DNA from: Ignavibacteriota bacterium
Lineage (GTDB): Bacteria > Bacteroidota > Ignavibacteria > Tepidaquicellales > OLB5
Reading direction: 5' to 3'
DNA: 64,000 bases
NCBI GenBank assembly: GCA_003820375.1
Contig: RPQH01000001.1
Span: forward strand, 36,874-100,873
Position numbers and translations under genes: made by a program. Positions 10,167 through 44,694 of the stretch are shown one piece after another. Position 1 is the first letter of the stretch, and the number at the start of each line of letters is the position of its first letter. The notes under the pieces are model-generated. The model saw nothing but the letters and a program-made list of their open reading frames with translations, was not told the origin of the DNA and did no database searches.

Positions 10167-10179
10167 ATAAATTTCTCCT

Positions 10180-10752: not shown

Positions 10753-10754
10753 TC

Positions 10755-12152: not shown

Positions 12153-12156
12153 GATG

Positions 12157-15840: not shown

Positions 15841-15841
15841 T

Positions 15842-17799: not shown

Positions 17800-17881
17800 A
17801 GTACCCCTATTAACAGCTATATTTTAAAGGGGTTATAAGGGTATTTGCGAGCCTCGTTCTTTTTTACTGTCAAACATATGT

Positions 17882-21300: not shown

Positions 21301-22132
21301 GCCTTATGATGTTTTTAGTATTTTAAAAGCATGTTGGATTAATTGGTTAGATAGATGGGATAATGGTAAAAGAATAAACTTAATCATCAGTGATAAAGAT
21401 AAGAGTAGTTATTTTAACCAGACTATCGGGAACGAGAAGTATAGTATTTTTCATGGAGATTATTCCAGCAAGGCTTTAAAACTAAATTATAATGAAAGAT
21501 ATGTAATATTTGACAGGCATGGTGATACACACTTTGATATTAAAAGTCAGTTGAAATGTTTCGAATTTGGTAATCTTTTTTATCAGACATATGAAAAAAA
21601 CAATGATGATTTTAATATTCTTAATCAATGTCAATTAAATGAGTTAAGTTATTATCAATTAATTGAAGCAGCATTGGTTAAAATTTTAATAGCTGATGAA
21701 AGATTATGTGCCTATATGAATGATAAACTTAATTCAATTAATACAAATTACAATATCATCAACGAGAACTATGAATTAAACTCACATGGGGCGGCTCTCA
21801 CTAATATTTTCTTTGTAAACTCATTAGAAAATAACATTATAAGCAAAACAAATGCTTCATATGCATGCTATATCAATAATGATAAAGTTACTTTTAATTT
21901 TTTAAATAAAGAAATCAAAACATATTTTGATTGTATTATAGTTCATAGAACATTTATTAATGAACATCTATTAAGAAATTTGAGAACAATAATTCCAAAT
22001 ATTATTATTACCTCCGGCGGGGGCTCAATTCAGAGAGATGAAAAGTATAAGTTTAAACCTTTAAGTCTTTTCCAGGGATTAACATCAAATCATTTCTCGA
22101 AAATAACATTAACAAAAAATGCTTTAACATAA
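18374..22132 (+). CDS. Giant (1252 aa) histidine-kinase-like GHKL ATPase protein with receiver-like flanks
   Basis: H-box-like AVSSIFARNYSHNIGAHV. N-box-like FFSILENIIRNSSKHNKK ~190 aa downstream. VIVYDNISEA and RKQLGIKDMKINAHLL at the G1/G2-box positions (degenerate). N-terminus KKILIFDYYENIL. C-terminus VKILIADERL...DCIIVHRTF...IIITSGGG...KFKPL resembles a (pseudo)receiver. Confidence 0.5.
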   Translation: MENKSKKKILIFDYYENILRYLMKKLGDIRIRYEVIFIKMNNGKSVLKQLQDHVPSFVFYQPFDFSSILEPDMQFLEKYILPFLKNKNCNVLFYYYIYNKSNTSDIANNVYNKFQSFIQQNVHKKNNSNINFINTADFYVKPNKSSSNLKTGESYLDYQLKRLDYLYKPLKEKNDNDRQINDEDLVDDIHNPIKNDYAANLDNELLDEYTSFISDLITDYILHCDYIDNKVEGYFNLDNLKFLKFKNLYIDKLKDIQVFNGDEYNTIKLSLGKLTFYDQMGNLLLDIPYKKYYNNLNAYVKEHKLLKYLFSENINRYEKGKNYIFYEFYYYNDANKITLKINNCFYRINSKTKNLENADDILKKWLRILFSEVYYLNFYNKDQNIWNEININGNIVNSIIQQSSSLYGESPFYFVFFFEELDIAGQKGTVNYCLYSDSVQINALRGNRIPINENNIEEFTDRIYSDIRPLIISRAQESIFPLINNQIRKLAVQSAVSSIFARNYSHNIGAHVDNRTYYNDIIFNLNNLYGAKAINDNRKLIDVWIHLMKDLMKNYSIKRNEFLADYQHPPKNLLLYEDIILPFVENMLLMNNIASSEDIMYFKNGNCIENKLKIKVNINGNELSAQYPDMRCIVDCDELIEYPDHFPYVYCYKGLSNPNNCEIEDLTNILKTKIILGNDIEISITNEHAFFSILENIIRNSSKHNKKILEDESELLIQINVYDTDLVDNKKDNNFYHVIVYDNISEAKLCDIWEFKRTIESSIINIETAQLERKQLGIKDMKINAHLLCSSEEINDDILKKSLEVVIIDRSIKGPAEIIFNPLQYRNYDELLKDIKEHYYGDFDIDNYKFSFGYKFKLQKSKKIMWVVGNDLKIDGKVIDEFQEKGVTIFSYQEDLSSNLSKTIASYQFIVFEREYFKNFSDEDYISFERCLTKLPFRLLLNSEDDDFNEYLSKLINSRRIQLVKNKIHFLDSNNEPYDVFSILKACWINWLDRWDNGKRINLIISDKDKSSYFNQTIGNEKYSIFHGDYSSKALKLNYNERYVIFDRHGDTHFDIKSQLKCFEFGNLFYQTYEKNNDDFNILNQCQLNELSYYQLIEAALVKILIADERLCAYMNDKLNSINTNYNIINENYELNSHGAALTNIFFVNSLENNIISKTNASYACYINNDKVTFNFLNKEIKTYFDCIIVHRTFINEHLLRNLRTIIPNIIITSGGGSIQRDEKYKFKPLSLFQGLTSNHFSKITLTKNALT

Positions 22133-22137: not shown

Positions 22138-22776
22138 ATGAGAAATATAATTTTCATTACAAGAGATTACGAAAATCAATACACTATTAAAGATGAATAT
22201 ACACACTTATGGAAAGCTGACGGTGAATCCAGTTTCTTTTCAATTGATTTAAACGATGATAAGATTTTAGTAATAAATGGACCAAAATTGTTTAAAACTT
22301 TGGATATTATGAAGAAAATTGAAACTTTATCTCACTATATTCCTAGGAATGAGGAAACAGGATTATTATATCATAGCCACACGCTTAATAATAGTCATTT
22401 AAATTTATCTTTGAAATTCTTAATGAAATTTGGTCATAGTGATGAATACTTTTATAATGGAATATATATACCTTTAGCTGAAAATAAAAACAATAAAGAA
22501 GTTGTTGTAAACTATTTTAATCAAATATGGGATATGTTTGACCCTGCATCTGAAATGGAATGTAAATTGAATGTACTATATAAATGTCTTGTTCCAGTGA
22601 AAGATACAAAGGAAATTGAGAGACTACCTGGCTGGAAAAAAATAAAAAATATTAAAATATCAAATAATGAAGAAGAAATATCAATAATTGATTACTTAAG
22701 AATCAATTTTACAAAAGATTCATTGGAATACGATGTTTTACTTACAAAACTTAGAGATATTGTTTTAAAGAATTAA
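22138..22776 (+). CDS. hypothetical protein (212 aa), 5 nt downstream of the kinase-like gene
   Basis: Tight operonic spacing. No convincing domain motif. Confidence 0.45.
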   Translation: MRNIIFITRDYENQYTIKDEYTHLWKADGESSFFSIDLNDDKILVINGPKLFKTLDIMKKIETLSHYIPRNEETGLLYHSHTLNNSHLNLSLKFLMKFGHSDEYFYNGIYIPLAENKNNKEVVVNYFNQIWDMFDPASEMECKLNVLYKCLVPVKDTKEIERLPGWKKIKNIKISNNEEEISIIDYLRINFTKDSLEYDVLLTKLRDIVLKN

Positions 22777-25100: not shown

Positions 25101-27295
25101 ATTTCAATCTGCATTCGTCTCATTCATTTTAAAGCCAACATCATTTTCACAAACTAGCGGCTCCACTAACAAGTTTCAATCGGCATTCGCCTCATTCATG
25201 TAAAAAGGCAGATAAGACCACCGAAATCACAACAAAGAGAAGAGTTTCAATCGGCTATCGCCTCATTCATGTAAAAAGTTCAGCTTCAAAGATTGCTATC
25301 ACTTCCAACAAGGAGTTTCAATCGGCCTAAGCCTCATTCATATTTTAACTAAAAATAAACCCGAAAACGTAAAGGTTCATACTTACGGTTTCAATCGGCT
25401 TTCGCCTCATTCATGTAAAAAGCGAAAAGTCATCGTATCAAAGGGGTCAACCAAAGAGTTTCAATCGGCTTTCGCCTCATTCATGTAAAAAGACTTTGCA
25501 ATGACAAATGTTCAGGGAAGCTTCTATAAAGGTTTCAATCGGCTTTCGCCTCATTCATGTAAAAAGTCACCATATTCGGTGAATTCTGGGGAAATCGTAA
25601 ATTGAGTTTCAATCGGCTTTCGCCTCATTCATGTAAAAAGCCTTCAAGACTTCATAAACGATAACACCACAGTTTCAATCGGCTTTCGCCTCATTCATGT
25701 AAAAAGAAAGAATGCTGTTATCTCAGTAATAAATCCTGAGTTTCAATCGGCTTTCGCCTCATTCATGTAAAAAGACAAAACGTGTAATTGCCAATAAGTC
25801 CAAATCCAGGTTTCAATCGGCTTTCGCCTCATTCATGTAAAAAGGATGACCCATGAAGAAAAGATGAAAGAAATTGAGTTTCAATCGGCTTTCGCCTCAT
25901 TCATGTAAAAAGATATATTCTGAAAAGGTACAACCTATCATTAAAGTAGAGTTTCAATCGGCTTTCGCCTCATTCATGTAAAAAGGTTATTTCGCAATCA
26001 ACATATATTTTAATTAAGCGTTTCAATCGGCTTTCGCCTCATTCATGTAAAAAGTATCATTACTTATAATTGAACCAACTCCAAATTTTCTTAGGTTTCA
26101 ATCGGCTATCGCCTCATTCATGTAAAAAGAAATAGATACTGCTTATGTGAAAACCGGATACGTTTCAATCGGCTTTCGCCTCATTCATGTAAAAAGAATG
26201 AAGCTCAGCCACCTATTGTGGTTGAAAAAGAGTTTCAATCGGCTTTCGCCTCATTCATGTAAAAAGAACAGTTTCAACAGCCCGTGACTTATAACTACGG
26301 AGTTTCAATCGGCTTTCGCCTCATTCATGTAAAAAGTCATTTGGACAAGGCTGGACCACAGAGTTCAATTGCGGTACGTTTCAATCGGCTTTCGCCTCAT
26401 TCATGTAAAAAGGGGAGAGCAAAAGAATCGCAATCTCACTCGAGCGTTTCAATCGGCTTTCGCCTCATTCATGTAAAAAGGGGACAGAACCTGAAAAGGT
26501 TGATTTCATTCACTGGAGTTTCAATCGGCTATCGCCTCATTCATGTAAAAAGGGTAGTAAAACTGTCAACGCAGTTTGCCACAAAGGGGCAGTTTCAATC
26601 GGCTTTCGCCTCATTCATGTAAAAAGTCTTACTGATTACGCTACAAAAACGTATGTTGATGAGTTTCAATCGGCTTTCGCCTCATTCATGTAAAAAGGAG
26701 AAAAGGACAAGATTGAACGGAAAATTCGGATAATGAGTTTCAATCGGCTTTCGCCTCATTCATGTAAAAAGCTTTGAACTGGTATAACTTCAAATACATT
26801 TCACAAGAGTTTCAATCGGCCTTAGCCTCATTCATGTAAAAAGATATCAATTCCGAAACCCAGAGAAACCGTTGAACAGGGGGTTTCAATCGGCCTTAGC
26901 CTCATTCATGTAAAAAGCTGCACATAAAGGAGTATTTAATGAAATCAATTACGTTTCAATCGGCTTTCGCCTCATTCATGTAAAAAGTCTGATTTCGAAT
27001 ACGGCATGGTTACAATACACAGCGTTTCAATCGGCTTTCGCCTCATTCATGTAAAAAGATACAGAGATTGCGAAACATTCGGTTCGTACGCGGAGTTTCA
27101 ATCGGCCTTAGCCTCATGCATGTTTTAACTACGACTTTGTCGTAAACTTAAGCACCGATGAATACCGAGTTTCAATCGGCTTTCGCCTCATTCATGTTTT
27201 AACAACAGACCTGGTGCAAGCGGTAAGATAAATGCGTTTCAATCGGCTTTTCCTTAGATTCCGTCTTCAGCGGGAAGCCTCATTCAGTTTTCTGA
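25101..27295 (-). CRISPR. CRISPR array 2: 31 repeats, directly abutting the 3' end of cas6-RT
   Basis: Plus-strand consensus is GTTTCAATCGGCTTTCGCCTCATTCATGTAAAAAG (35 nt), with spacers ~32-39 nt. The first unit at 25101 is degenerate, and a further probable relic repeat lies at 25031-25064. The last three units (27087, 27159, 27236) are variants. The unit at 27236-27295 carries a 25-nt loop insertion and ends 8 nt from the cas6-RT stop. Confidence 0.95.
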
Positions 27296-27302
27296 TAATA
27301 AA

Positions 27303-28832
27303 TTAATGTAAATTTCTGTTTTTATCAATGATATATAAATCTTCACCATCCTTTATCAGCTTGCAGTTACCTGGCAGCATTTCATCAAGCCGGTCAAGGT
27401 AAAGATTTATGAGCATAGGATTTAGCATTCTATTATATGGAATACCTTCATATGATGTGACCATATTTCCTTCTATACAAACCGGCTGTGTTATCCATAC
27501 CCTTATCAGGTCACTTACCGGATCACCACCGAATAATGTTTCTATTCGCTCGTATAATACATCCTTATTAATATAGCTGTAGAAAGAGTCTATATCAATT
27601 TTATTATATTCGTAACCATTTTTTTCTGCTTCATCAAGCATCTTTAATGCTCCCTCTTTCGAAAACCCATTCCTGTAAAAAAATGAGCTTTCTCCTATAT
27701 ACTTATTTATCACGGGTTCAGCAATTTGTTTTACTGCCAGCTGAAGTGTTCTTTCTTCAAGATTAAATTCAGTATGAATGTTAATTCCATCATGTTCTTC
27801 AGTTATAGTACCGGTAAACGGTTTAGCTTCATATTTGCCTGTAATTACTTCATTGATTAAATTATCTAAATTCTCATTAATTTTTGAATTAAATTTCTTT
27901 ACTTTTAGTTTATCGCTAATTGTTAAGCTATTATCCGATGCCAATACTTTATAGGCATTCAAAACATTTTCTTTTTTGACTGCTTTTGCAAGAAATGTTT
28001 CATAAGGAGATAACTCGCTAACATTGTACCCGGGAATATTTGTAACTGAATTTTTTCCAAATCCAAAGGATGTATTATTTCCATTATTAATAAACTGTCC
28101 GAACCATAAAAGCAATTTTAAGTCTGCTGAAAGCTCAGCAGTAAATTTTACTTTGCCTGAAACTCCTCCAAGTGTTTTGGATGTATATGGCATATCAAGC
28201 CACATAAGGTTAATATAATTAACTGCACAGTGAAGAAATTCTAAAGAAGGGTCACATTCATCAACTGAATTGCCGCATAATATTGATAAGCGTTTTACTC
28301 TATAATATAATAGTTTTAAAAATTGTCTTATATCAAAATATTCCCGGTCAAAATATTTATGCCCGGGTACAGGATATTCTCTTACCATTCTTAATGGTGA
28401 CCTAAGCCATAGCTCATATTCTTCTTCACCTCCATCTGTAAAATCCGGTATAATTTCCGTTTTAATTTCAGTTATATCTTCTAATGTAAATATTCCTTCT
28501 ATGCTGTTCTCTTTCGGTATATAAGAAGAAATTGATTTTAGCTTGCTTTCAAGATGGTCAATAAAATAATCACCTGCATTTATTGCGGTAATTCCGAAGT
28601 TATAGCAATCTCCTGATTGGTAAGATGTTCTTCCTGATTCTACCGCATTAATGATAATATCCTCACCAAGCTTGTTAACGCCTCTTTTCATGGTTTTACA
28701 AATAAGGTCATAGAGCTTTGAGCCATGGAAGAAAAGAAAATTTACATCATTGTTAAATTTAATTGTGACTTTAAATCTTTTATATGAAATAGATTTAATT
28801 AGTTCTTTAACAGGAAAATTGAAGTGATTCAT
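27303..28832 (-). CDS. cas6: Cas6 fused to a truncated/degenerate reverse-transcriptase domain (no Cas1 part)
   Basis: The N-terminal ~265 aa end in the Cas6 G-rich loop FINNGNNTSFGFGKNS. The C-terminal part has RT motifs in order: LEERTLQLAVKQIAEPV (1), FFYRNGFSKEGALKML (2), NKIDIDSFYSYINKDVL (3/A), GIPYNRMLNPMLINLYLDRLD (4/B). It then reads LIKDGEDLYII where YxDD (5/C) is expected, and the protein stops 8 aa later. Confidence 0.7.
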   Translation of the reverse strand: MNHFNFPVKELIKSISYKRFKVTIKFNNDVNFLFFHGSKLYDLICKTMKRGVNKLGEDIIINAVESGRTSYQSGDCYNFGITAINAGDYFIDHLESKLKSISSYIPKENSIEGIFTLEDITEIKTEIIPDFTDGGEEEYELWLRSPLRMVREYPVPGHKYFDREYFDIRQFLKLLYYRVKRLSILCGNSVDECDPSLEFLHCAVNYINLMWLDMPYTSKTLGGVSGKVKFTAELSADLKLLLWFGQFINNGNNTSFGFGKNSVTNIPGYNVSELSPYETFLAKAVKKENVLNAYKVLASDNSLTISDKLKVKKFNSKINENLDNLINEVITGKYEAKPFTGTITEEHDGINIHTEFNLEERTLQLAVKQIAEPVINKYIGESSFFYRNGFSKEGALKMLDEAEKNGYEYNKIDIDSFYSYINKDVLYERIETLFGGDPVSDLIRVWITQPVCIEGNMVTSYEGIPYNRMLNPMLINLYLDRLDEMLPGNCKLIKDGEDLYIIDKNRNLH

Positions 28833-29033
28833 TTTGACAGTTATTGATTTTGAAATAATAACTTTGCTGGTTCAGATATGTTGCAGCTAAAAATTTCCTT
28901 CAAAAGCAGAAACGAAAAAGAAATTAGTTCAAGCAACTTCACAAATATAATCAAAGAAGATAAAAGTTTGTAACCGTTTTATTTTTCAATAATAATAAAA
29001 CCACAGATGAGAGGAAAAAGGGAGTATATAATT

Positions 29034-29182
29034 ATCGGTTTACGCTTACCTAAATTTAGAATTGTCGATTGTCAATTGCGAATTAAGAATTAATAAATAA
29101 TCAGCCGTTGCATAAGAATAAATAGAAAAACATAAACACACCATATCACACACCCCTTCTTCGGAGGGGATGGGGGAGGCTG
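29034..29182 (-). promoter_or_regulatory. Type-1 inter-array leader-like element, copy a (relic repeat + AATTNNN heptads + GC hairpin)
   Basis: The relic repeat is atcggtttacgc at 29034. Six heptads span 29053-29094. The conserved block aagaataaatagaaaaa..acaccatatcacacacccc is present. The hairpin CCCCTT-cttcg-GAGGGG lies at 29153-29169. It is homologous to 30011-30146. Confidence 0.5.
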
Positions 29183-29773
29183 CTCCTAATCGGCCTTAGC
29201 CTCATTCATATTTTAACATTATGAACGCTGGTTTTGCCAAAGTTTATGAGGAGTTTCAATCGGCTTTCGCCTCATTCATGTAAAAAGTCCAATACGGAGT
29301 ATCTGAATTAGCTCAAGAGGTTTCAATCGGCTTTCGCCTCATTCATGTAAAAAGTCCAATACGGAGTATCTGAATTAGCTCAAGAGGTTTCAATCGGCTT
29401 TCGCCTCATTCATGTAAAAAGAAAACACCAAGTTGAATAACAAACCCACATTACTGAGTTTCAATCGGCTTTCGCCTCATTCATGTAAAAAGACCTTCCA
29501 TGAAGATTATGGTTATATTCTCAGGAGTTTCAATCGGCTTTCGCCTCATTCATGTAAAAAGAATTATTGGACTTTTGTTGTTTATAGCAATTCGTTTCAA
29601 TCGGCTTTCGCCTCATTCATATTTTAACGCGGAAAATACGATGAGCATCCTACAGGCAATGAGGGAGTTTCAATCGGCCTTAGCCTCATTCATATCTTAA
29701 CGACCTTGTCGCAGGTATCACAGTTTCAGGATGGCAGGAGTTTCAATCGGCCTTAGCCTCATTTTATACAAAT
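29183..29773 (-). CRISPR. CRISPR array 3a: 9 repeats (mixed repeat families), includes a tandemly duplicated spacer
   Basis: Repeat starts: 29183 (5' end degenerate), 29253, 29320, 29387, 29458, 29527, 29594, 29667, 29739. The last diverges after ..cctcatt. Confidence 0.9.
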
Positions 29774-29841
29774 ATAATAAATTGAAAAACAACTTTACAT
29801 CACAGTAATCGTTTTCCCGCTAAAAGCGGGATCTTCGCTTT
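29774..29841 (-). promoter_or_regulatory. Type-2 inter-array leader-like element, copy a (AT-rich block + CCCGC hairpin)
   Basis: Sequence ..aatataataaattgaaaaacaactttacatcacagtaatcgttttCCCGCTaaaAGCGGGatcttcg.. Hairpin at 29816-29830. Homologous to 31403-31469. Confidence 0.5.
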
Positions 29842-30010
29842 GCTTCGACAATCGGCTTTCGCCTCATTCATGTAAAAGTCACCCATCAATTGCTTTCTAC
29901 ACCTTCAGGAAATCAGTTTCAATCGGCTTTCGCCTCATTCATGTAAAAAGCGGGCTGCTCTGTGGCAAAGATTCAATGTGGTCGCCGTTTCAATCGGTTT
30001 TCGCCTCATT
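29842..30010 (-). CRISPR. CRISPR array 3b: 3 repeats
   Basis: Repeats at 29842 (degenerate, gcttcGACaatcgg), 29916 and 29987. The last diverges after ..cctcatt. Confidence 0.85.
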
Positions 30011-30146
30011 TTCTCAATTGCGAATTTCGAATTGTGAATCTCGAATTGAGTATAAATAAAATAACGAGTCGGAGAAAAAGAATAAATAGAAAAATATAAA
30101 TACACCATATCACACACCCCTCCTTCGGAGGGGAAGGGGGAGGCTG
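30011..30146 (-). promoter_or_regulatory. Type-1 inter-array leader-like element, copy b
   Basis: The five heptads are aattgcg|aatttcg|aattgtg|aatctcg|aattgag at 30016-30050. The conserved block is present. The hairpin CCCCTC-cttcg-GAGGGG lies at 30117-30133. Confidence 0.5.
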
Positions 30147-31402
30147 TTCCTAATCGGCCTTAGCCTCATTCATGTAAAAAGTGCTGGCTGTTTCGATATA
30201 GCTAGTAATAATAGTGTTTCAATCGGCTTTCGCCTCATTCATGTAAAAAGAATGAGCAGTGACCAGGGGAATACCTTCTTTTCGGTGTTTCAATCGGCTT
30301 TCGCCTCATTAATGGTCAGATCTTAGTTACAAGTTTTACAGGTTTCAATCGGCTTTCGCCTCATTCATGTAAAAAGTTTGAGCACACAGGCACAGGAACT
30401 TCAAAATCTGAGCGTTTCAATCGACTTTCGCCTCATTCATGTAAAAAGCATCATCAGCCATCATATTCGTTAAATGACTTTTTCACAGAGTTTCAATCGG
30501 CTTTAGCCTCATTCATGTAAAAGGGTTTACCCTTAAACGCCAATGTCAATGTGTCAGAGTTTCAATCGGCTTTCGCCTCATTCATATTTTAACATGGTTA
30601 CGGGTGCGACAGCGGATAACTTTGCGTTTCAATCGGCCTTAGCCTCATTCATATTTTAACTGACGATTCATCCTTCATCAAGGATGACTTCTGTTTCAAT
30701 CGGCCTTTCCTTAGATCCCGTCTTCAGCGGGAAGCCTCATTCATATTTTAACGTGGAAGAAAAACAGACACCACCTCCAGTTACTTTGTTTCAATCGGCC
30801 TTAGCCTCATTCATATTTTAACTGATTCAATAAACTTTATGTCTCTTGGCAAACCGACTATTGGAGTTTCAATCGGCCTTAGCCTCATTCATATTTTAAT
30901 TAATGTTCCAATTCCAGTTTGCTTCGATATTAATGAGTTTCAATCGGCTTTCGCCTCATTCATGTAAAAAGAAGAAATTGCTAAAAAGTTGGACCTGGCC
31001 CGGTGTTTCAATCGGCTTTCGCCTCATTCATGTAAAAAGTTTGACAAGAAGTTTGCCAAAGGTACTGAGATAGATAAGTTTCAATCGGCTTTCGCCTCAT
31101 TCATGTTTTAACTGAATATGTAGTGATTACCAATACTGCCACCGGCGCAGTTTCAATCGGAGTTAGCCTCATTCATGTTTTAACGCAAAGAGACAGCCTG
31201 TGGTGGATATTTGATTCAAAGAGGTTTCAATCGGCCTTAACCTCATTCATATTTTAACTTTGGGCCGAAGTTGTAGGGTTACCATAGGATCAATGTTTCA
31301 ATCAGCCTTAGCCTCATTCATATTTTAACATAAACTTTGACACACGTAAGCCAAGCGAAAAGCAGATGTTTCAATCGGCCTTAGCCTCAATCTATGCAAA
31401 TA
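30147..31402 (-). CRISPR. CRISPR array 3c: 18 repeats (both repeat families, chimeras, one loop-insertion repeat, one truncated repeat)
   Basis: Repeat starts: 30147, 30216, 30287 (truncated after cctcatt), 30342, 30414, 30490, 30559, 30636, 30703 (60-nt insertion variant), 30788, 30866, 30937, 31005, 31078, 31150, 31224, 31295, 31368. Confidence 0.9.
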
Positions 31403-31507
31403 TAACAAATTGAAAAACAATTTTACATCACAGTAATCATTTTCCCGCCAAGGGCGGGATCTCTGCTTCGCTACGACAATCGGCTTTCGCCTCATTCAAT
31501 CAAAAAT
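31403..31507 (-). repeat. Type-2 leader-like element copy b plus an orphan degenerate repeat (31470-31507)
   Basis: Sequence aatataacaaattgaaaaacaattttacatcacagtaatcattttCCCGCCaagGGCGGGatctctg, then gctacGACaatcggctttcgcctcattcaat. Hairpin at 31444-31458. Confidence 0.6.
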
Positions 31508-31540
31508 ATGGAAATGTTTTATTAATTAAAATTATAAAAT

Positions 31541-32470
31541 CTATTTTATTAAAGCATCTGCCAAATTATAAGGAATTTTGCATGCCGGTATTCTTTTCCC
31601 TTTATTAAAACGTATTAATGGTCCTAACTCATATTCTGTTTTACTAATCCTTTTGTAAGATTTAGTTAAGACTGAATTAATTACATATAGCAGTTCAAGA
31701 TTACTTGAGCTAATTGCACCCATCCATTTAAGTGTCTCGCTTTTATCACGTGATACAATAATTACACAGTTACACTCATTCAATATTCTTTGGTTTTTCT
31801 TATCTATTTTGCCGCCGCAGTCAATAAATAAAATCTTCTTATTTTCAGAAGCAGTCTTTATACCTAAAACCGTTTCAGAGACAAATCCTTCGTCAAAAGC
31901 AGTTTTATATCTAAGAGTAGTGCCTAACTGTTCCGGTACATCATGGTACCAGTCACCTTCACCATCTGGACAAGCCCTTATTATATAGAAATATTTCTGA
32001 AAATTCTTCCACCCCCACCTTTTACTAAGCTTCAGAGAAAGAAGGTTAAGAAAAACGGATTTGCCGCTATGAGGCGGGCCCACAAAGGCAATTATTTTAT
32101 TTTTTCTTTTCCCGGGCTTTTTTTTTATCTTGTTTGTCGACTCATGAATTCCAAAATAATGTTTAATATCATCCAATGGAATTACATCTCCTGCTTGAGG
32201 GGATTTTGAATCATGCGATTGTACTACTATTGCTCCTTTACGCGGGTCAAACGTTGCAACCCACTTTGATATATGAAGAAGATGAACTAAATATGAAAAC
32301 AGCCAAACGGGAGATTTACCGGAAATAATTACACCTTTTGTATAATCAATTCCCTTTGGTAATTGGAGATTTCTTATATCCTCCGGGTCTAATAAGCCGT
32401 TCATTGTAATATCCAGAACCTGGAAATCTTTATTACCTTTAATTACTTTAAGTAAAATTTTTTTATTCAA
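31541..32470 (-). CDS. csx3: Csx3 (Crn3-type cA4 ring-nuclease fold) fused to a P-loop ATPase (Csx3-AAA)
   Basis: The N-terminal GVIISGKSPVWLFSYLVHLLHISKWVATFDPRKGAIVVQSHD closely parallels, from memory, the Csx3 core GVVISGRGPIWL...YDPRLGAVVVQSH. It is followed by IIAFVGPPHSGKSVF (Walker A) and ILFIDCGG (Walker B-like). Confidence 0.8.
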   Translation of the reverse strand: MNKKILLKVIKGNKDFQVLDITMNGLLDPEDIRNLQLPKGIDYTKGVIISGKSPVWLFSYLVHLLHISKWVATFDPRKGAIVVQSHDSKSPQAGDVIPLDDIKHYFGIHESTNKIKKKPGKRKNKIIAFVGPPHSGKSVFLNLLSLKLSKRWGWKNFQKYFYIIRACPDGEGDWYHDVPEQLGTTLRYKTAFDEGFVSETVLGIKTASENKKILFIDCGGKIDKKNQRILNECNCVIIVSRDKSETLKWMGAISSSNLELLYVINSVLTKSYKRISKTEYELGPLIRFNKGKRIPACKIPYNLADALIK

Positions 32471-33238
32471 TTATTCTTTACTTCTTCCTGTTAGAGTTTT
32501 TTCCAAAATAGAAGTACCCCCGCTTGTATATTCGAGTAAATTAATATTATACTTTTTAAAATACTCTGTCCAGTAAGTTTTTAATGCTGAATACTGGTCA
32601 GGGGGGAAATCCTGTATTACACCGGTATAAACAAACACTTTAGTTTTGGGAATCTCCATTGCTTCAGTTTTTTCTAAGAATCTTTCTGCATCCTTTGTAT
32701 TTCTAAGAGAGGTAAAATTGTACTTATCGGATTCCTGCACCATATCTGAAAAAAGAATAATGAGGTTTTCACAATCTTCGTTTTTATCATCAAGATATCT
32801 CCGGGTTTCTTTTAATGCTCCAATAATATCAGTTTTTTTACTAAGCTTTTCTCTGGAACTCAAGGCAGCATAATATAAGCTGTCAAAAGTCTTTATGAGG
32901 CTGTCTTTGCTTTCGTCAAATCTCCTTTTTTTAATTCTATCTTTTTGAGCAGGGGAATCCATATCTTTTTCATAACTATTTAAAGCAAAATCAATATGGT
33001 AAATTTCTGTAGCATTTGTCTGGCTGCCGTAATCGATCGGAAGAACAATCATTCTGTCAGTAAAACTCATTGATTTTACCACGTTGTTTTTAATAATATC
33101 TTTATATGATTCAATTACATTTTGAGGGATGCTTTTAGAAAAATCTACGAGGCAAATTATATTATATGTTTTTTCTTTTTTTCCGCATGAAAAGAAAAGA
33201 AACATTATTGAAATCAAAAACAATACTATTTTCTTCAT
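32471..33238 (-). CDS. vWA-domain lipoprotein
   Basis: Signal peptide with lipobox LFFSC. MIDAS-like CLVDFSKSI (DxSxS). IILFSDMVQES resembles the vWA hhhhTDG strand. The stop abuts the csx3-AAA start codon. Confidence 0.55.
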   Translation of the reverse strand: MKKIVLFLISIMFLFFSCGKKEKTYNIICLVDFSKSIPQNVIESYKDIIKNNVVKSMSFTDRMIVLPIDYGSQTNATEIYHIDFALNSYEKDMDSPAQKDRIKKRRFDESKDSLIKTFDSLYYAALSSREKLSKKTDIIGALKETRRYLDDKNEDCENLIILFSDMVQESDKYNFTSLRNTKDAERFLEKTEAMEIPKTKVFVYTGVIQDFPPDQYSALKTYWTEYFKKYNINLLEYTSGGTSILEKTLTGRSKE

Positions 33239-33265
33239 AATGATATAGGTTGTGCTGTTATTAAA

Positions 33266-34486
33266 TTATGCAGTTTGCAATTCTTTTTCCGGTATTTTTT
33301 CATCTGATTTATTTCCTGATTTTAAATCTTTTATTTCTTCTACGAGCTGTATTATAATTTCCTCATTTTTTCTTATTTCTTCCATTTTCTCTTTAATTGC
33401 ATCTGCATTTAAAATTCCATATTTAAACAATTTTTCATCAACACTTTGGATGGAATCATATTTGATATATACTGAATCATTTATAGAGAAACCCGGTTTT
33501 AATCGTTCTTTTTTATATTCTTCATGGAGCTTGTCTTTATTCTGGTCACACTCTAATTTGTATATTCTTCTGACATCAAGTACAAGCTGCCAGAATTTCT
33601 CGATAGTCTTTTTAATCTCATTATTAAATGTAGAAAGAAGGTTTTTTCTATTTTCATCATGCTCATGTATTTTAGTGACTGTTTCTCTCCACTTTTTCCA
33701 GAGCTTATACTTGAGTTTATTTGTAAATTGATTTCTTTTTACAAGTGCCATAAATATTCCTAAAGCAAAAGTAATTGCCATTGTGAGAATTGAAGCCCAA
33801 AACCCAATTCTTTCATTACTTTGTATCTCTTCTGCTGTATATCCTGTAGTATCGGTCTGCTCAAGAAAGTATATCCTGACAAGTCCTGCTGTTATTATAA
33901 TTAAAAAACTGACAGCAGTTAAAACATATCCAAGATTTCTTGTATCTTTGTAGTTTTTAAGTATGTGTTCAGATATTTTATTTTCTTCTTTCTTTTGCTG
34001 CATTTCACGGTATTTAAAATGAGTATCGAAAGAGTAATTAAGAACAACCATTACAACAGTTGCAAGGAATAACGCTAAAACAATTTTTAAAGCCTCTAAT
34101 TGGGGAGGAACAAAAACGGAAGCAGTCAAGTAATACAATCCGATTTCAGCAATTATAAACAAAGTTACTATAAAATAATAGAAGCGGTTTAAGCTTTTTA
34201 CTTTCTGAATTTCATATTCAGTAAATTCATAAGTATTTTTTTTATCCTGTTTGGTATTTTCCTCAATTACTTCAGTGCTTTTTAAAATTCCTTTTAGTTT
34301 ATTATATCTTTTTTGCATTCTTGAATATACATTCTGGAGCTTTTTCATATAAGCATCAGAATAATGAAGAATTTCATTAATAGCGTAAGTTTTCTGTTGT
34401 TTAACGGCAAGATCAACTTTGTTGGGGTCATTTTTTTGTCTTTTAAGTCGGAGCCTTCCGAAGAAATTTAATATCCAGTTTATCAT
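33266..34486 (-). CDS. 4-TM (two TM hairpins) membrane protein with long coiled-coil/helical cytoplasmic regions
   Basis: Four hydrophobic helices: FYYFIVTLFIIAEIGLYYL, IVLALFLATVVMVVL, LGYVLTAVSFLIIITAGLV and FWASILTMAITFALGIFMALV. They are flanked by K/E-rich helical segments. First gene of a 3-gene minus-strand operon. Confidence 0.55.
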   Translation of the reverse strand: MINWILNFFGRLRLKRQKNDPNKVDLAVKQQKTYAINEILHYSDAYMKKLQNVYSRMQKRYNKLKGILKSTEVIEENTKQDKKNTYEFTEYEIQKVKSLNRFYYFIVTLFIIAEIGLYYLTASVFVPPQLEALKIVLALFLATVVMVVLNYSFDTHFKYREMQQKKEENKISEHILKNYKDTRNLGYVLTAVSFLIIITAGLVRIYFLEQTDTTGYTAEEIQSNERIGFWASILTMAITFALGIFMALVKRNQFTNKLKYKLWKKWRETVTKIHEHDENRKNLLSTFNNEIKKTIEKFWQLVLDVRRIYKLECDQNKDKLHEEYKKERLKPGFSINDSVYIKYDSIQSVDEKLFKYGILNADAIKEKMEEIRKNEEIIIQLVEEIKDLKSGNKSDEKIPEKELQTA

Positions 34487-34775
34487 GGTTAATTAAAATT
34501 AGTTCTTGGAATATATGTGTGAATTTAATTATTAATCTATAAGGAATGTCAGTAAACGTACAGTCGTAATGATATAGCATCTATTTCTGAATAAGCCATA
34601 TGAACAATAACCTATGAACCAGAATAGAAGCAGTCAGGAAGTGAGAAAATTTGCTTCTTCTAAAGACAGGAAAAACAGTTAATTAAATATACATATTGGT
34701 AAAAAAATAAACAATGAAGATTAATGAGGCAGGATAATTTAAATTAATAGAAGAAGATGGATATGATCAAAGATA

Positions 34776-36062
34776 GTTTTCAATCGGCTTTCGCCTCATT
34801 CATGTAAAAAGTACAGTAGATTATCATATATAACGGTATGACGTTTCAATCGGCTTTTCTTTAGATCCCGTTTTTAGCGGGACGCCTCATTCATGTAAAA
34901 AGCACTTATAATGATATGCTGACAACTGTGAACTTTTAGTTTCAATCGGCTTTCGCCTCATTCATGTAAAAAGGAGATATGCCCTGGAGTAACACCGAGC
35001 TTACCGAGTTTCAATCGGCTTTCGCCTCATTCATTTAAAAAGTTATCAAGTAGAAATAGTTTCTATACTTGGCAAAGAAGAGTTTCAATCGGCTTTCGCC
35101 TCATTCATATAAAAAGGCAGTCGCAAAGCCAGGAGATGAAGCAGGAGCAGAAGAATGAGTTTCAATCGGCTTTCGCCTCAATCATGTAAAAAGACACAAA
35201 GACAATAAATTCAGGATAAAAGACCCCAAGTTTCAATCGGCTTTTCCTTAGATCCCGTCTTTAGCGGGACACCTCATTCATGTAAAAAGGAAGAAAATAT
35301 TGAACCAAGCTCTTCATTGCCTGAGTTTCAATCGGCTTTCGCCTCATTCATTTAAAAAGGACAAACTTCGTCCAGTTCGACATTCCAGAGGGAGTTTCAA
35401 TCGGCTTTCGCCTCATTCATGTAAAAAGTTCGTGTATGAAAAAACATTTAACAGGCCGGTCAACATGTTTCAATCGGCTTTCGCCTCATTCATGTAAAAA
35501 GTATAGGCGTATATTATACGAGCACACTAGACGGAGTTTCAATCGGCTTTCGCCTCATTCATGTAAAAAGGAAGAACGAAGCTCAGCCACCTATTGTGAT
35601 TGAGAGTTTCAATCGGCTTTCGCCTCATTCATGTAAAAAGAGACGAGTTCCACCATTCCGTTACATATAAATGGTTTCAATCGGCTTTCGCCTCATTCAT
35701 GTAAAAAGGTAAATAGCGAATCTACAACTAGCGCAAAGAGGTTTCAATCGGCTTTCGCCTCATTCATGTAAAAAGATGTTCCATTCAGTGAGAGATGATT
35801 TGCGCGAAATTGTTTCAATCGGCTTTCGCCTCATTCATGTAAAAAGTAACTGCAATCCATCCAAATATGATTTGCAAGAGTTTCAATCGGCTTTCGCCTC
35901 ATTCATGTAAAAAGTTATTTGTAATCGTGAATTCGTATTCTCAAAAAATCAGCGGTTTCAATCGGCTTTCGCCTCATTCATGTAAAAAGGAAGTCTTGGT
36001 TCTGACTCAGATTGGAATCTTAAGGGAGTTTCAATCGGCTTTCGCCTCATTCATGTAAAAAG
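34776..36062 (-). CRISPR. CRISPR array 4: 18 repeats; units nearest 36062 are identical, variants cluster at the low-coordinate end
   Basis: Repeat starts: 34776, 34843 (insertion variant), 34939, 35008, 35082, 35159, 35230 (insertion variant), 35325, 35394, 35467, 35536, 35606, 35674, 35741, 35812, 35880, 35955, 36028. Consensus is GTTTCAATCGGCTTTCGCCTCATTCATGTAAAAAG. Confidence 0.95.
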
Positions 36063-36347: not shown

Positions 36348-37607
36348 TTACAAGGTACTATACTTAATATTATTTATCTTCTCTCTCTCAATCTCAATAT
36401 CCGGATGCAAGTAACCGGATGTAGTTGCTATATCCGCATGACCTGCCATTTTTTGTGCGTTATCGAGAGATATTCCGTTGTGCAGCCAGTTTGTAAAACA
36501 TGTATGTCTGGTTGAATGAAAAACATATTGCCTCTTTGGAAAGCCAAGTTTCCTGATAACACTATTAAGGTAATGGCTTGCAGATTGCTTGTTATAAAGT
36601 TTGCCAAAGATGTAATTGTCTAAATTAAAGTTCTTCGAATTTACCATTTCATTATATAGAGCAAAAATAACTTCAAATACCTCTCGTGTTAGTATTACTT
36701 CACGGTTTTCATAGTCCTTAAGTGTAAAGCCAGGTTTATTTTCAACTCTTATGTATCCTTTTATTTCAAATTCATATTTTTGCCATTCTTCGTTTGTAGA
36801 TGATATATAAATTTTATATATGTCAAAAATCGTATGTCTATTAGAAAAGACAAAATCATTAAATTGAAGATGGAGTATTTCATCGAGTCTCATACCCGTA
36901 TTGAATGCTATAATTGCCACTGCTTTCATTTTAGGTCTTTTGATAGCATTTATGATTTTAGACGCATCACTGTTATTGAATATTCTTCTTGGCTTTTGTG
37001 GAATTGGCAGAGGTTCCAAATTATCGCAAGGATTATTAACCAGATAGTCATAAAATACTGCTTGCCGGAAAATATGATGTAAGTTACGCAAGTCTATATT
37101 TACAGAGACAGGGGAGATTGGCTCATTTGCTTGTCTATTTGATGACTCTTTAACATTTCGTCTATTCATGGTCTTACGCATGTTCTTAAATTTATTTATA
37201 TCATCAAAGCAGTACATGTTAATAGGTTTATTTCCTATGAACTCAAGAAAGTAGTTAATAGTAAGTCTGTAGTTGTTTCTGGTACCTTTACTATGGCTGT
37301 TTTGCATTTCCTTTATTATCAGCGATGCAAATTCTTTGAAATTTAATATGCATTTTCTATTATTTAATGAATCTGTTTTTACTTTAAAGGAATTCATGTA
37401 TTCCCGCAGCTTAGTTTTCGAATTTATCCAGGCAGGCGGCATATGATACTTTCTCACCTTTAGTAGATTTCCATTTAAATCAGTTTTCTCTTCGTACCAA
37501 TAGAAGCACATCTTTTTGCCAACAACAATATTATTGCCAAAGTCATCTTTTAAATATTTTCCATTATGACCTTTTTTATAAAGATTTCTTTTATATGTAT
37601 TAAACAT
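36348..37607 (-). CDS. Tyrosine recombinase/integrase (phage-integrase family)
   Basis: C-terminal catalytic block NTGMRLDEIL ... FHSTRHTCFTNWL ... AGHADIATTSGYLH (R...HxxR...Y). Confidence 0.85.
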   Translation of the reverse strand: MFNTYKRNLYKKGHNGKYLKDDFGNNIVVGKKMCFYWYEEKTDLNGNLLKVRKYHMPPAWINSKTKLREYMNSFKVKTDSLNNRKCILNFKEFASLIIKEMQNSHSKGTRNNYRLTINYFLEFIGNKPINMYCFDDINKFKNMRKTMNRRNVKESSNRQANEPISPVSVNIDLRNLHHIFRQAVFYDYLVNNPCDNLEPLPIPQKPRRIFNNSDASKIINAIKRPKMKAVAIIAFNTGMRLDEILHLQFNDFVFSNRHTIFDIYKIYISSTNEEWQKYEFEIKGYIRVENKPGFTLKDYENREVILTREVFEVIFALYNEMVNSKNFNLDNYIFGKLYNKQSASHYLNSVIRKLGFPKRQYVFHSTRHTCFTNWLHNGISLDNAQKMAGHADIATTSGYLHPDIEIEREKINNIKYSTL

Positions 37608-37764
37608 TAATTATTAATTGCTTGGTAAAAGTTAAAAGAAATTATTTTGCAATATTCCAAATCATATTGGAATAAATGTTTATTTAAGAATGATAATATA
37701 TTTAGTTTAAAGTTTACTTGAATATCATATTAAGATACTTTTATAGTATGATAAAATGTAAATC

Positions 37765-39024
37765 TTAAAGACTACTATATCTAATCTTATTAAACTTTTC
37801 TCTTTCAGCTTCAAAATCCGGATGTGCATAACCTACTGTTGTTAGCGGTGAAGCATGTCCTGCGATTGCTTGTACTGTATCTAAGGGAATGCCTGCATGC
37901 AGCATATTAGTCAATGCTGTATGTCTTGTACTGTGAAATACATATCTTCCGGCAGGAAACCCAAGTGAACGAATAACTTTATTTAGGTATTGGGATGCAG
38001 TATTTTTGTTCAATAAAGAGCCAAGTATGTAACCATTAAGGTTAAATACATTTGCATCAGCCATCTTTATATACTCTTCAAAAACAATTTCAAATACTTC
38101 CCAGATTAAAATGACGTTACGATTGTCGTGATCTTTTAGCGTGAAATTGGGCTTGTTTTCAATCTTTATATGGTCTAAAATACTCATGGCAAATTCCTTA
38201 AATTCATCAGGTGTACATGCTTTGAATCGTATGTAAATTGTTTGCCAGTGATAATCATCTTTGAATACAAAATCGTCAAACTGTAAATGCAGGATTTCAT
38301 TTAACCTCATTCCTGTATTTAATGCAATAATTGTAGCAATTTTCAATTTTGGTCTTTTTATAGCATTTAAAATGAGAGGAATATCTCTATTAGAAAAATT
38401 ACGTCTTGGTTTTTGAGCCACAATTTCATGAGTAACTTTGCTGCAGGGATTCTTCAGCATGTAACCTGAATTTACAGCTTCTTCAAATATATGATGCAAA
38501 TCCCTGAGCTCTATATTGACCGTGACAGGGGAGATAGGCTTGTAAGGTACATCCTTATTTTTAATGCATAAATTCGACATGACCTTTCTTAAATTTTTAA
38601 AATTAACAATGTCATCATATGTGTACATTTTGATCGGTTTATTACCTACCAGACTGATGAAATAACCGCAAGTACGTTGATATATGCTTTTTGTGCTTTT
38701 ACTGTAACCGTTTTCCATTCCCTTAATCAGGATATCTGTATATGATTTGAAATCCATTACTTCTGCGTTTTTAGGAATTGATGAGTCCGGGATAACATAG
38801 GTTTTAAGGTATTTATTTAAATCAGCTTTTGTTTTAACCCAGTCTGGCGGCATATGTGTTTTTTTCTCTTTTTTTAATTTACCGTCAGCAAACTTTTCTT
38901 CATACCAGTAAATTGAAAGCTGCTTTCTTAAAACAATATTTTTTCCATTGGCTTCTTTTAAATATTTTCCATCAGTTCCTTTTTTGAATATTTTTCTTAT
39001 GTAAGTATTAAATACTTTTTGCAT
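37765..39024 (-). CDS. Tyrosine recombinase/integrase, paralogue of the adjacent gene
   Basis: The catalytic block is NTGMRLNEIL ... FHSTRHTALTNML ... AGHASPLTTVGYAH. It is colinear with 36348-37607 over its full length. Confidence 0.85.
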   Translation of the reverse strand: MQKVFNTYIRKIFKKGTDGKYLKEANGKNIVLRKQLSIYWYEEKFADGKLKKEKKTHMPPDWVKTKADLNKYLKTYVIPDSSIPKNAEVMDFKSYTDILIKGMENGYSKSTKSIYQRTCGYFISLVGNKPIKMYTYDDIVNFKNLRKVMSNLCIKNKDVPYKPISPVTVNIELRDLHHIFEEAVNSGYMLKNPCSKVTHEIVAQKPRRNFSNRDIPLILNAIKRPKLKIATIIALNTGMRLNEILHLQFDDFVFKDDYHWQTIYIRFKACTPDEFKEFAMSILDHIKIENKPNFTLKDHDNRNVILIWEVFEIVFEEYIKMADANVFNLNGYILGSLLNKNTASQYLNKVIRSLGFPAGRYVFHSTRHTALTNMLHAGIPLDTVQAIAGHASPLTTVGYAHPDFEAEREKFNKIRYSSL

Positions 39025-43079: not shown

Positions 43080-43158
43080 AAAAATCCTAAAAAGCCATGT
43101 ACCACCATTTCAATTCCGACTCTGTCCTTTCTAACTTCTAACTTCTAACTTCTAACTT

Positions 43159-44694
43159 CTAACTAAATCCCATAACCGGTAAAATTATTCTCAATCCCAG
43201 CCATATCAGAAATCCCCCTGCAATATCAAATATAAATCCTGCTTTAATCATTTTCCGGATTGGTACAAGTCCTGTTCCGTAAACTATTGCATTGGGCGGA
43301 GTGGAAACAGGCAGCATAAATCCCCAGCTTGCTCCTAATGTTGCTCCCAATGCGGGAGGTATAGGATTCACACCTGCAGCTATTGCAATTGATATCATCA
43401 CAGGGATAACCATGTTCGCAGATGCTGTATTGGATGTTGCTTCGCTTACTATTATAGAGATAAATATTGAGGCAAGTGTAATACCCCATAACGATTCTGC
43501 TCCGCTAATATCTGTTAAGCTCTTGCCAATTACATCTGCAAGCTTTGTCTCGAACATTAATCCGCCAAGTGATAATCCGCCTCCGAATAGTAATATTGTT
43601 CCCCAGTTTATTTTGACTGCATCTTTCCATGTTATTGTAAATTTTCTCCCGCTCCAGTTTACAGGTAATAAAAACAGCAGTATTGCTCCAATCAATGCAG
43701 GCACAGCTTCTGGCATATACCTGTTGATTGATTTGAACTGTTCTGAATTTCCGCCGTAAATAACTGCAATTATTCCGGGGAGTATCCAGAGAAATACGGT
43801 TATCAGGAAAGCGGCCACTGTATTTACCTGACCCCTTGTCCATTTCCCAAGCTTTTTCTTTTCTACATCAATGAACTCATTGCTTCCTTCTATTACTTTC
43901 GCCTCCGGCTTGTTCAGATAATACATCAGCAAAAATAAAAATATGTACATGATTATAAGCATAGGTACTGCTATTGTCATCCACTGGAAAAAAGTAAAGC
44001 TGTAACCTGTGAATTTCTGTATCATTGCTATGCCTATTATATTGGGAGGTGTGCCGACCGGGGTTCCAATACCACCTGTAGATGATGCATAAGCAGCCAT
44101 CAGCATTAAACCCGTTCCGAAACCCATTTTACGCTTATCCTTCAAGGATGCTGTATATACGGATACTATACCTATACCTATTGGCATCATCATTGCAGTT
44201 GATGCTGTATTGCTTATCCACATTGATATAAAAGCACATATAAAACCGAAAACAAATAAAATTCTCGCTGTTTTACTTCCCACCCATTTCAGAGACATTA
44301 AGCTGTATGCAAAACGTTTATCCAGTCCATGAAGAGACATTGCTTTTGCAATCATAAAGCTTCCGATAAAAAGAAATATCAGCGGGTCAGCAAAGGGAGC
44401 AAATACCTGCTTTGCATCTCCGGCACCGAGCAATACACAGAGCACAGCACCAAGCAGTGCGGTAACCGGAATCGGCACCGGCTCTGTTACCCACCATATA
44501 ACAACAAATGCAATGACGGATGCAAGCACATGCGCACGGAAATCCAGGCTGCTAATGGGAATAAAATAAATTATTATTGCTGCAATGGGACCGAGGAAAA
44601 GTCCGATTATACTTCTTATCTTTTCGAACCTCTCTTCAGACGGAGTGATAACTTCCCGGAATTCTTCCGGTGGTTTATTTGAAGTTTCATGCAT
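43159..44694 (-). CDS. DASS/SLC13-family anion (di/tricarboxylate or sulfate):Na+ symporter
   Basis: Polytopic membrane protein with two SNT hairpin motifs (ISNTASTAMMMP, ATSNTASANMVIP). Confidence 0.75.
   Translation of the reverse strand: MHETSNKPPEEFREVITPSEERFEKIRSIIGLFLGPIAAIIIYFIPISSLDFRAHVLASVIAFVVIWWVTEPVPIPVTALLGAVLCVLLGAGDAKQVFAPFADPLIFLFIGSFMIAKAMSLHGLDKRFAYSLMSLKWVGSKTARILFVFGFICAFISMWISNTASTAMMMPIGIGIVSVYTASLKDKRKMGFGTGLMLMAAYASSTGGIGTPVGTPPNIIGIAMIQKFTGYSFTFFQWMTIAVPMLIIMYIFLFLLMYYLNKPEAKVIEGSNEFIDVEKKKLGKWTRGQVNTVAAFLITVFLWILPGIIAVIYGGNSEQFKSINRYMPEAVPALIGAILLFLLPVNWSGRKFTITWKDAVKINWGTILLFGGGLSLGGLMFETKLADVIGKSLTDISGAESLWGITLASIFISIIVSEATSNTASANMVIPVMISIAIAAGVNPIPPALGATLGASWGFMLPVSTPPNAIVYGTGLVPIRKMIKAGFIFDIAGGFLIWLGLRIILPVMGFS

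Follow-up and report, generated by a model that had tools for sequence, protein, structure and literature searches.

A 25-nucleotide palindrome in the loop of four CRISPR repeats from a type III-D region of an Ignavibacteriae genome

We analysed 64 kb of DNA (hereafter the window) from an Ignavibacteriae metagenome-assembled genome (MAG), which carries a type III-D CRISPR-Cas region. Four of its approximately 78 CRISPR repeats were found to be 60 nucleotides (nt) long instead of the standard 35 nt, at irregular positions, and each of them carried a 25-nt insert, TCYTTAGATYCCGTYTTYAGCGGGA, between nucleotides 3 and 4 of the loop of the repeat hairpin (GGC-YTT^M-GCC), giving a 29-nt loop. The four inserts share their orientation and their exact position in the loop. 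We give about even credence to the view that these 25 nt constitute a discrete, portable palindromic nano-element, similar in kind to repetitive extragenic palindromes (REPs) or small dispersed repeats (SDRs), which was inserted into pre-existing CRISPR repeat loops. What appears unusual is the encounter of a very small palindromic repeat with a precisely defined target, that is, an apparent 25-nt entry into four repeats at one nucleotide, for which no description was found in the literature. An earlier reading of this DNA, made from the sequence only, had likewise been aware of no description of loop-insertion repeats; our literature search found none of insertions within CRISPR repeats, and a literal search for the insert sequence found it in no paper among 8 million.

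Four interrupted repeats and their insert

On the + strand the repeat reads GTTTCAATCGGC-loop-GCCTCATTCAT-tail, and on the - strand its 3′ end is ATTGAAAC, the usual 8-nt tag. The arrays are taken to be transcribed from the - strand because of this tag end, the degenerate units at the low-coordinate array ends and the AT-rich leader beyond position 36062, with which a weak Rfam CRISPR-DR match on the - strand agrees. Two variants of the repeat were distinguished. Variant A (GGCTTTCGCC...GTAAAAAG) includes an A repeat present in 41 copies and the loop TTTC, found in 52 repeats, whereas variant B (GGCCTTAGCC...ATATTTTAAC) has the loop CTTA.

The first hairpin-bearing repeat (27236-27295, + strand, as are the other three) is the leader-side terminal unit of the array at 25101-27295, where its degenerate tail adjoins the stop codon of a gene encoding a fusion of Cas6 with reverse transcriptase (RT). 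Its insert, TCCTTAGATTCCGTCTTCAGCGGGA (27251-27275), interrupts the loop TTT^A and has one T.G position in the stem (TTCCG/CGGGA). The second repeat (30693-30752) stands within a run of B-type repeats and carries TCCTTAGATCCCGTCTTCAGCGGGA (30708-30732) in the loop CTT^A. The third (34843-34902), an A-type repeat with the loop TTT^C and TCTTTAGATCCCGTTTTTAGCGGGA at 34858-34882, is the last unit but one on the distal side of the array at 34777-36062. The fourth (35230-35289) is also of type A, carries TCCTTAGATCCCGTCTTTAGCGGGA at 35245-35269 and has ACC in place of GCC.

The sequence-only reading had already reported four repeats with a 25-nt hairpin in the loop, and we recovered the 60-nt units at the same loop position. 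Three of its unit coordinates agree with ours, whereas the second unit, placed by it at 30703-30762, truly starts 10 nt earlier, at 30693. It had also described the loop as replaced by about 29 nt; the 29-nt loop is there, but it arose by the addition of 25 nt within the loop and not by its replacement. The flanking stem and tag region, said to be untouched, are mostly so: GTTTCAATCGGC and the subsequent GCCTCATTCA are intact in the 60-nt repeats, apart from the ACC in unit 35230 and the degenerate tail of unit 27236.

To place the insert, every possible 25-nt block was deleted in turn from each unit and what was left was matched against each of the 26 distinct uninterrupted repeats. In this exhaustive test the best excision was that at offset 15, which left no mismatches between unit 34843 and the 41-copy A repeat, none between unit 30693 and its own B-type neighbours at 30626 and 30788, and one (GCC to ACC) in unit 35230. 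For unit 30693, excision at offset 14 also produced no mismatches, against a variant with the loop CTAA, which amounts to a one-base ambiguity; offset 15 was preferred because two neighbouring repeats match. In the A-type units the boundary of the insert could not be moved without creating mismatches. Despite the degenerate tail of unit 27236, its loop context TTT^A is present uninterrupted at 30490, as are the contexts TTT^C and CTT^A elsewhere. A gap placement after GCCT, proposed by MAFFT, costs mismatches and was discarded in favour of the more parsimonious placement given by the excision test. No target-site duplication was found flanking the inserts when the four units were compared in this way. 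The spacers beside the four long units are all unique and of normal length, and the inserts differ from each other at 1-3 positions.

With up to 3 mismatches allowed, the core motif AGATCCCGNNTTNAGCGGGA occurs at exactly 6 sites in the 64 kb, where 0.01 would be expected: four on the + strand, in the repeat loops, and two on the - strand (29815-29834 and 31443-31462). A relaxed hairpin search added only a decayed copy near 17465, and the whole window contains just four perfect GC-rich hairpins with a stem of at least 6 bp.

Each insert consists of a GC stem of 5-6 bp, a T-rich loop of 7 nt and a short 5′ tail. In isolation, three of the four fold as DNA hairpins (-4.9 to -5.2 kcal/mol, z-scores from -2.5 to -3.7), while the degraded insert at 27251 reached a z-score of only -0.8 and did not fold as one. 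Cas6 may still find the stem base of the 60-nt units, as the sequence-only reading had expected, and folding favours this only weakly. In the minimum-energy RNA fold the GGC/GCC closing stem was kept in all four units, although one closing pair of unit 35230 is a G.U wobble and the inner hairpin of unit 27236 gives way to a different pairing; the ensemble frequency of these folds was low (0.07-0.29) and their z-scores were not significant. On the strand of the CRISPR RNA (crRNA) the insert is followed by AAAGCCG^ATTGAAAC, which puts 7 nt between its downstream end and the predicted Cas6 cut site. Rfam 15 gave no match at any hairpin, in the window or in the external loci described below, in either gathering or E-value mode. 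A tRNA-like origin was also considered, as the loop CTGAAGA of the opposite strand resembles a Phe anticodon loop, but ARAGORN finds no tRNA and the resemblance was discarded as coincidence.

Related hairpins at array ends and in other genomes

The two - strand copies of the core lie, as previously proposed, in inverted orientation within the type-2 inter-array elements. The copy AGATCCCGCTTTTAGCGGGA (29815-29834) belongs to the element at 29734-29877, where, on the crRNA strand, it directly follows the degenerate terminal repeat (..GCCGATTGTCGAAGC); AGATCCCGCCCTTGGCGGGA (31443-31462) belongs to the paralogous element at 31362-31505, and the two elements are 88% identical. In the direction of the crRNA, a type-2 module runs from the degenerate terminal repeat through the hairpin and an AT-rich promoter-like stretch to the 5′-degenerate repeat that opens the following array. 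A third, decayed type-2 module, TTTTTCCGTAAGGGGGAGCTTCGTTTCGAC followed by AATCGGC, was located on the - strand at 17455-17500, where it closes the distal side of the small array beside the cas operon. The type-1 modules (29095-29209 and 30059-30173, 90% identical) show the same order of degenerate terminal repeat, GC hairpin, AT-rich promoter-like stretch and 5′-degenerate first repeat, with an unrelated hairpin, CCCCTYCTTCGGAGGGG, that has a UUCG-like loop on the + strand.

The type-2 hairpins and the loop inserts have AGAT, the stem, the T-rich loop and a trailing A in common, but not their flanks. The compensatory change reported between the two inverted copies (CCCGCT..AGCGGG versus CCCGCC..GGCGGG) is present, in a comparison of two sequences only. 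With both types of module considered, hairpins at array ends are an old feature of the locus. In a related III-D locus (L128, 19816-20330), the leader end of a 44-repeat array has three isolated repeats with altered 3′ ends, 195-267 nt apart, and this repeated leader-like module recalls the multi-array architecture of the window.

When 185,579 species genomes were scanned for the pattern AGATYCCGYYYTYRGCGGGA, more than 118 loci were obtained, and the counts that follow are among the matches listed. The exact 20-mers AGATCCCGTCTTCAGCGGGA and AGATCCCGTCTTTAGCGGGA were the two commonest variants (21/116 and 25/116, respectively). Sixty-six matches appear to be unrelated hairpins or terminators without conserved flanks, whereas 50, with the loops TCTTCAG or TCTTTAG and thus identical to the exact 20-mers of the window, form one family, GTCGA-AGATCCCGTCTTYAGCGGGA-TTGG, whose flanks were not forced by the pattern (GTCGA in 76-96% and TTGG in 46-74% of copies).

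This tagged family is mostly intergenic, occurs in every orientation relative to the neighbouring genes and has several copies per genome (for example L059 2851-2870, L056, L093 and L077, within L002-L118, and also L119-L126). About 38 of 47 GTCGA-tagged copies among the matches listed were in MAGs labelled Desulfobacterota or Deltaproteobacteria; matches labelled Anaerolineales or Bacteroidales have the same flanks as the Desulfobacterota ones and may be mis-binned. Copies with other flanks were found in Bacteroidota (L016, L018, L021 and L034) and in an Ignavibacteriales MAG (L040), there just past the stop codon of an ABC-permease gene. The external copies sit in larger genome-specific repeats, often amid short tandem heptamer-like motifs that differ between genomes (ttggaat, ctggata, aacttga, cctgaaa and ttcgata beside the tagged family). 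In this pattern-selected sample, a 5′ GAAGA of the tagged family is complementary to its loop TCTTY, so that overlapping palindromes result. The window itself has a heptamer tandem repeat, (TTCTAAC)x5, at 43129-43164, at the 3′ end of a Na/sulfate symporter gene; whereas heptamer runs elsewhere host the hairpin family, this one does not.

A metagenome scan with the 5′ tail of the window inserts (YTTAGAT...GGGA; cTTTAGATCCCG..GGGA) retrieved 8 contigs, none of them with the match in a CRISPR array, and no further loop-interrupted repeat. All 8 contigs represent one dispersed family (..cctgacTTTAGATCCCG..CGGGAttcgatattcgatattc), and on L119, the one contig tested, an encoded protein shares 95-98% identity with counterparts from Desulfobacterales MAGs. 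There were no CRISPR arrays in the 126 loci from both scans, and a CRISPR-repeat origin of the external family was rejected on this ground. Viral contigs gave 0 matches for the repeat, the interrupted repeat or the hairpin. A shared TC at the 5′ end of the window insert and the GTCGA family requires a gap and was not counted.

The closest Cas7-like homologues were only about 50% identical, and three related III-D loci had other repeats or no array. In two related III-D loci (L130, 97-2020, and L131, 76-1790) we observed tandem units of 105 and 73 nt (TGCAGGCGGTCGGGAATGACAAGG...), in at least 13 copies, upstream of cas6 and around a GIY-YIG gene; they do not represent an ordinary CRISPR array because the units share their 'spacer' sequence.

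Origin of the insert

The sequence-only reading had left two options, a tiny palindromic insertion element and a structured module spreading by recombination between arrays, and the first is now the better supported of the two, by the clean excision in two repeat variants, the unique spacers and the dispersed core elsewhere. A different explanation, unlikely but deserving a hearing, is that the hairpin is a selected functional module. It could be a structured signal, protein-binding or processing and insulating at array ends, that was copied into repeats to punctuate pre-crRNA or to block antisense transcription, or the core site of a recombinase, with 5-bp arms and a 7-nt asymmetric centre, given two tyrosine recombinase genes beside the leader (36348-39024). 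Consistent with a function, every copy in the window is CRISPR-associated, in three arrays the array-end copies keep to one place, behind a degenerate terminal repeat, the stem was preserved through a double compensatory change and two integrase-family genes are adjacent; moreover, the 29815 copy, alone among the array-end copies, was flagged as terminator-like, on the + strand, that is, antisense to the crRNA. However, the loop copies have no T-run or U-tract on either strand and the terminator scan of the window did not exceed its shuffles (8 found versus 7.3 expected), and a terminator function was rejected for these copies. The hairpin stands on opposite strands in loops and in trailers, which is incoherent for an RNA signal, it occupies only 4 of about 78 repeats at irregular positions, and elsewhere this core is scattered between genes, in genomes that have no CRISPR array close to it. 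As for a recombinase site, all repeats are co-oriented, with no trace of an inversion between the inverted sites, and this idea was set aside for lack of any supporting rearrangement.

Distinctly unlikely, in our judgement, is the idea that the insert arose once and was then carried from repeat to repeat and from array to array by homologous recombination or gene conversion. The arrays are certainly recombinogenic, with A/B mosaics, hybrids, duplicated modules, a duplicated spacer unit and an apparent deletion junction at 27295/27303, and the inserts, with one orientation and one site, differ at so few positions. Nevertheless, A and B loops differ in the base 3 nt upstream of the insert (T/C) and in that directly downstream of it (C/A), and in every hairpin-bearing unit both bases match the surrounding repeat type. 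Such a spread is disfavoured because a conversion tract would need both of its ends to fall no more than 0-2 nt from the insert. Furthermore, the four units have no neighbouring spacer in common, and hairpin-bearing repeats are never adjacent, whereas block transfer or leader-proximal copying would yield pairs. These recipient-type flanking bases, unique spacers and never-adjacent units suggest that the insert entered different repeat variants, at one nucleotide and in one orientation, in at least two and probably three separate events. The inserts do not appear to be identical by descent from a single duplication, an outcome that the sequence-only reading had regarded as fatal to its proposals.

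An assembly artefact or a chance similarity deserves next to no credence, since, although the window comes from a MAG and CRISPR arrays are prone to chimeric assembly, the four copies have 1-3 private substitutions, unique spacer contexts and two repeat variants, the core sites far exceed expectation and an identical core is found in independent assemblies. A mis-integration by Cas1-Cas2 was also rejected as improbable, since neither a repeat nor a target is duplicated and the insert is shorter than the spacer range.

If the insert is a portable palindromic element, as we prefer, its insertions would have been independent and directed by site or structure. A trans-acting enzyme not encoded in the window would probably have acted on the extruded or single-stranded GGC-loop-GCC hairpin. 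The insert may be tolerated there because, apart from the loop, nothing in the repeat core varies freely, the uninterrupted repeats showing at least 7 loop sequences, and it would leave the predicted Cas6 cut site and the 8-nt tag untouched. With a broken adaptation module, the arrays would no longer be renewed. The inverted array-end copies would be older members of the same hairpin family, housed in trailer/leader modules that have been duplicated. That all loop inserts point one way, antisense to the crRNA, might reflect either strand-specific insertion or selection against a forward hairpin in pre-crRNA. More speculatively, the integrase-flanked low-GC island may have picked up the element in a host where it was active; the CRISPR repeats would be the only abundant small hairpins of the island, which would explain why the copies are confined to CRISPR DNA.

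Several observations weigh against this explanation. Outside CRISPR DNA there were 0 hairpin copies in about 57 kb of the window, even with relaxed patterns, so that within the window the motif is absent elsewhere, which the sequence-only reading had considered unfavourable to its proposals. The window copies being CRISPR-confined, they offer no evidence that the hairpin is dispersed through this genome. Inheritance could also account for four copies that share one orientation. The loop copies do not have the GTCGA tag of the external family, and the external matches were found by a pattern derived from the window, so that their identity within it is in part an outcome of the search. The searches revealed no relative carrying this repeat, and the empty sites are only paralogous, not orthologous. 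Finally, a Pfam search of 30 open reading frames (ORFs), with about 20 further ORFs of at least 100 amino acids (aa) left out, gave no match to a REP-associated tyrosine transposase (RAYT), an IS200-type transposase or Y1_Tnp.

REPs are elements of 20-40 bp whose GTAG tags show degeneration to GTMG. Palindromes can be nested in their loops, and their mobilisation is thought to occur in trans (PMC3733652), that of the GTAG/CGTC-tagged ones through RAYT transposases (PMC3733652; PMC3116915). The insert resembles them as a GC-rich palindromic stem-loop whose size (25 nt, stem of 5-6 bp) falls within this range. The external family is intergenic, occurs in either orientation within larger mosaic repeats and has a 5′ GTCG tag that fits the GTMG degeneracy, and some REP families have nested loop palindromes with GGC/GCC termini. 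In contrast to REPs, the window copies have no such tag, the core being preceded by TCYTT in the loop copies and by GCGA or CAGAG in the trailer copies; they are not dispersed extragenically within the 64 kb but occupy a fixed single site inside CRISPR repeats, their stem is just 5-6 bp long with a 7-nt loop, and the scanned ORFs include no RAYT gene.

Insertions of miniature inverted-repeat transposable elements (MITEs) and insertion sequences in CRISPR arrays are known, including a 132-bp MITE in euryarchaeal loci (PMC4390879) and a 134-nt MITE that splits the Anabaena CRISPR array CR_6/CR_7 (bioRxiv 10.1101/2020.04.14.041012). As in the present case, a non-autonomous element interrupts an array. 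However, the MITE cases are single events of more than 100 nt with terminal inverted repeats that split arrays, whereas here 25 nt stand at the same nucleotide of four repeats with the repeat-spacer register kept, and neither the size of a MITE (50-500 bp) nor its terminal inverted repeats and duplicated flanks were found. IS1397 and ISKpn1 (refs 41-42 of PMC3116915) insert specifically into the loops of the palindromic units of REPs and bacterial interspersed mosaic elements (BIMEs). They share with our case a hairpin loop as specific insertion target, but they are full-length, transposase-encoding elements of the IS3 family, and their target is a REP and not a CRISPR repeat.

The size and manner of insertion are also reminiscent of SDR4-6 from Nostoc and Anabaena, 'very small mobile repeated elements' of 21-27 nt that Elhai and colleagues reportedly described in 2008 (Genome Res 18:1484, as cited in PMC3116915 and PMC3733652) and proposed to be mobile. 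SDRs sit among the heptamers of short tandemly repeated repetitive (STRR) sequences, and the external hairpin copies are likewise found between short tandem heptamer-like repeats. In addition to the same size class, both cases present an insertion into otherwise conserved paralogous sequence without obvious target duplication (0, 0 and 1 mismatch upon excision). The phyla differ. To our knowledge, insertion of SDRs into CRISPR repeat loops has not been described.

A more far-reaching proposal, which we hold to be very unlikely, is that a trans-mobilised palindromic nano-element of roughly 24-25 nt, which would rank with the smallest mobile DNAs, common to Desulfobacterota and the Fibrobacterota-Chlorobiota-Bacteroidota (FCB) group, inserts structure-specifically into small hairpin loops, including those of CRISPR repeats. 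By bloating the stem-loop recognised by Cas6 it could disable neighbouring crRNAs, either as a selfish eroder of arrays or as a weapon of mobile elements against them.

If the insertion of a portable element is confirmed, CRISPR repeats would be open to specific targeting by mobile palindromes of very small size, which would constitute a new route of array decay or sabotage, and the four units would be a natural experiment on the loop expansion tolerated by Cas6 in type III-D systems. They would also provide rare evidence, from filled versus empty sites, that hairpins of REP/SDR size (about 25 nt) move as discrete units, and the link to the Desulfobacterota hairpin family offers a handle for finding the mobilising enzyme. 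Should the hairpins instead be inert scars in a decaying locus whose adaptation module is broken, they would be a curiosity.

The host locus and its neighbourhood

The region belongs to type III-D by its regular conserved repeat and its adjacent cas genes (Cas10d, Cas7_IIId, Csx19, Card1-CARF, Csx3-AAA and the truncated Cas6-RT). The effector operon (7911-17110, - strand) encodes Cas7_IIId, Csx19, repeat-associated mysterious proteins (RAMPs), Cas10d and a Card1-like CARF nuclease. A common repeat is found in six CRISPR arrays: the small array at 17490-17800 and five further ones at 25101-27295, 29190-29775, 29849-30021, 30147-31402 and 34777-36062. The latter make up a structure transcribed from the - strand (25101-36062) that is interrupted by the truncated cas6-RT, csx3-AAA and two genes of no assigned family. 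In total there are 74 spacers of 31-43 nt, and a 20-nt spacer in one unit; this 55-nt unit, at 30287-30341, also has a truncated repeat.

Both the five-array structure and the small array are interleaved A/B mosaics with hybrids and with the minor loops CTAA, TATC, ATTC and TTTA, which suggests a fusion of, or recombination between, arrays of two related systems. At 29288-29386 a repeat-spacer unit is perfectly duplicated, and two spacers of different arrays (26197 and 35571) overlap one protospacer, with 21 nt in common.

The only Cas6 domain found in the window, a point that the sequence-only reading had overlooked, belongs to the Cas6-RT fusion gene (27303-28832, - strand), which is truncated at its 3′ end, within the RT part; Cas6 spans residues 18-264 and RT residues 282-506, and the Cas1 part is absent. 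This Cas6-like protein matches, at 100% identity, an NCBI protein of a MAG that is encoded on a 115-kb contig. The stop codon of this gene adjoins the hairpin-bearing first repeat of the array at 25101-27295, and the 27295/27303 boundary looks like a deletion junction. There is no cas1 or cas2 in the window and hence no intact adaptation module. Given this absence and the truncated fusion, the locus is probably a rearranged array complex in which spacer acquisition has ceased and the arrays are frozen.

GC content was 25-30% in the CRISPR-Cas region and 32-40% in the right flank. At one side (1-7163) are genes for an HNH protein, an ArdC-like antirestriction protein or metallopeptidase, a CARF-sigma54-type ATPase (Cas_NE0113) and a TraG/VirD4-like coupling protein, and on the far side of the CRISPR-Cas region from these genes there are two tandem tyrosine integrases (36348-39024). 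This integrase-flanked region of low GC may be an integrative or conjugative island. Within the CRISPR-Cas region, the large ORFs at 18374-22132, 22138-22776, 32471-33238 and 33266-34486 (1252, 212, 255 and 406 aa, respectively) had no Pfam or PADLOC match, and the 406-aa product has, by its sequence, the appearance of a membrane-bound protein.

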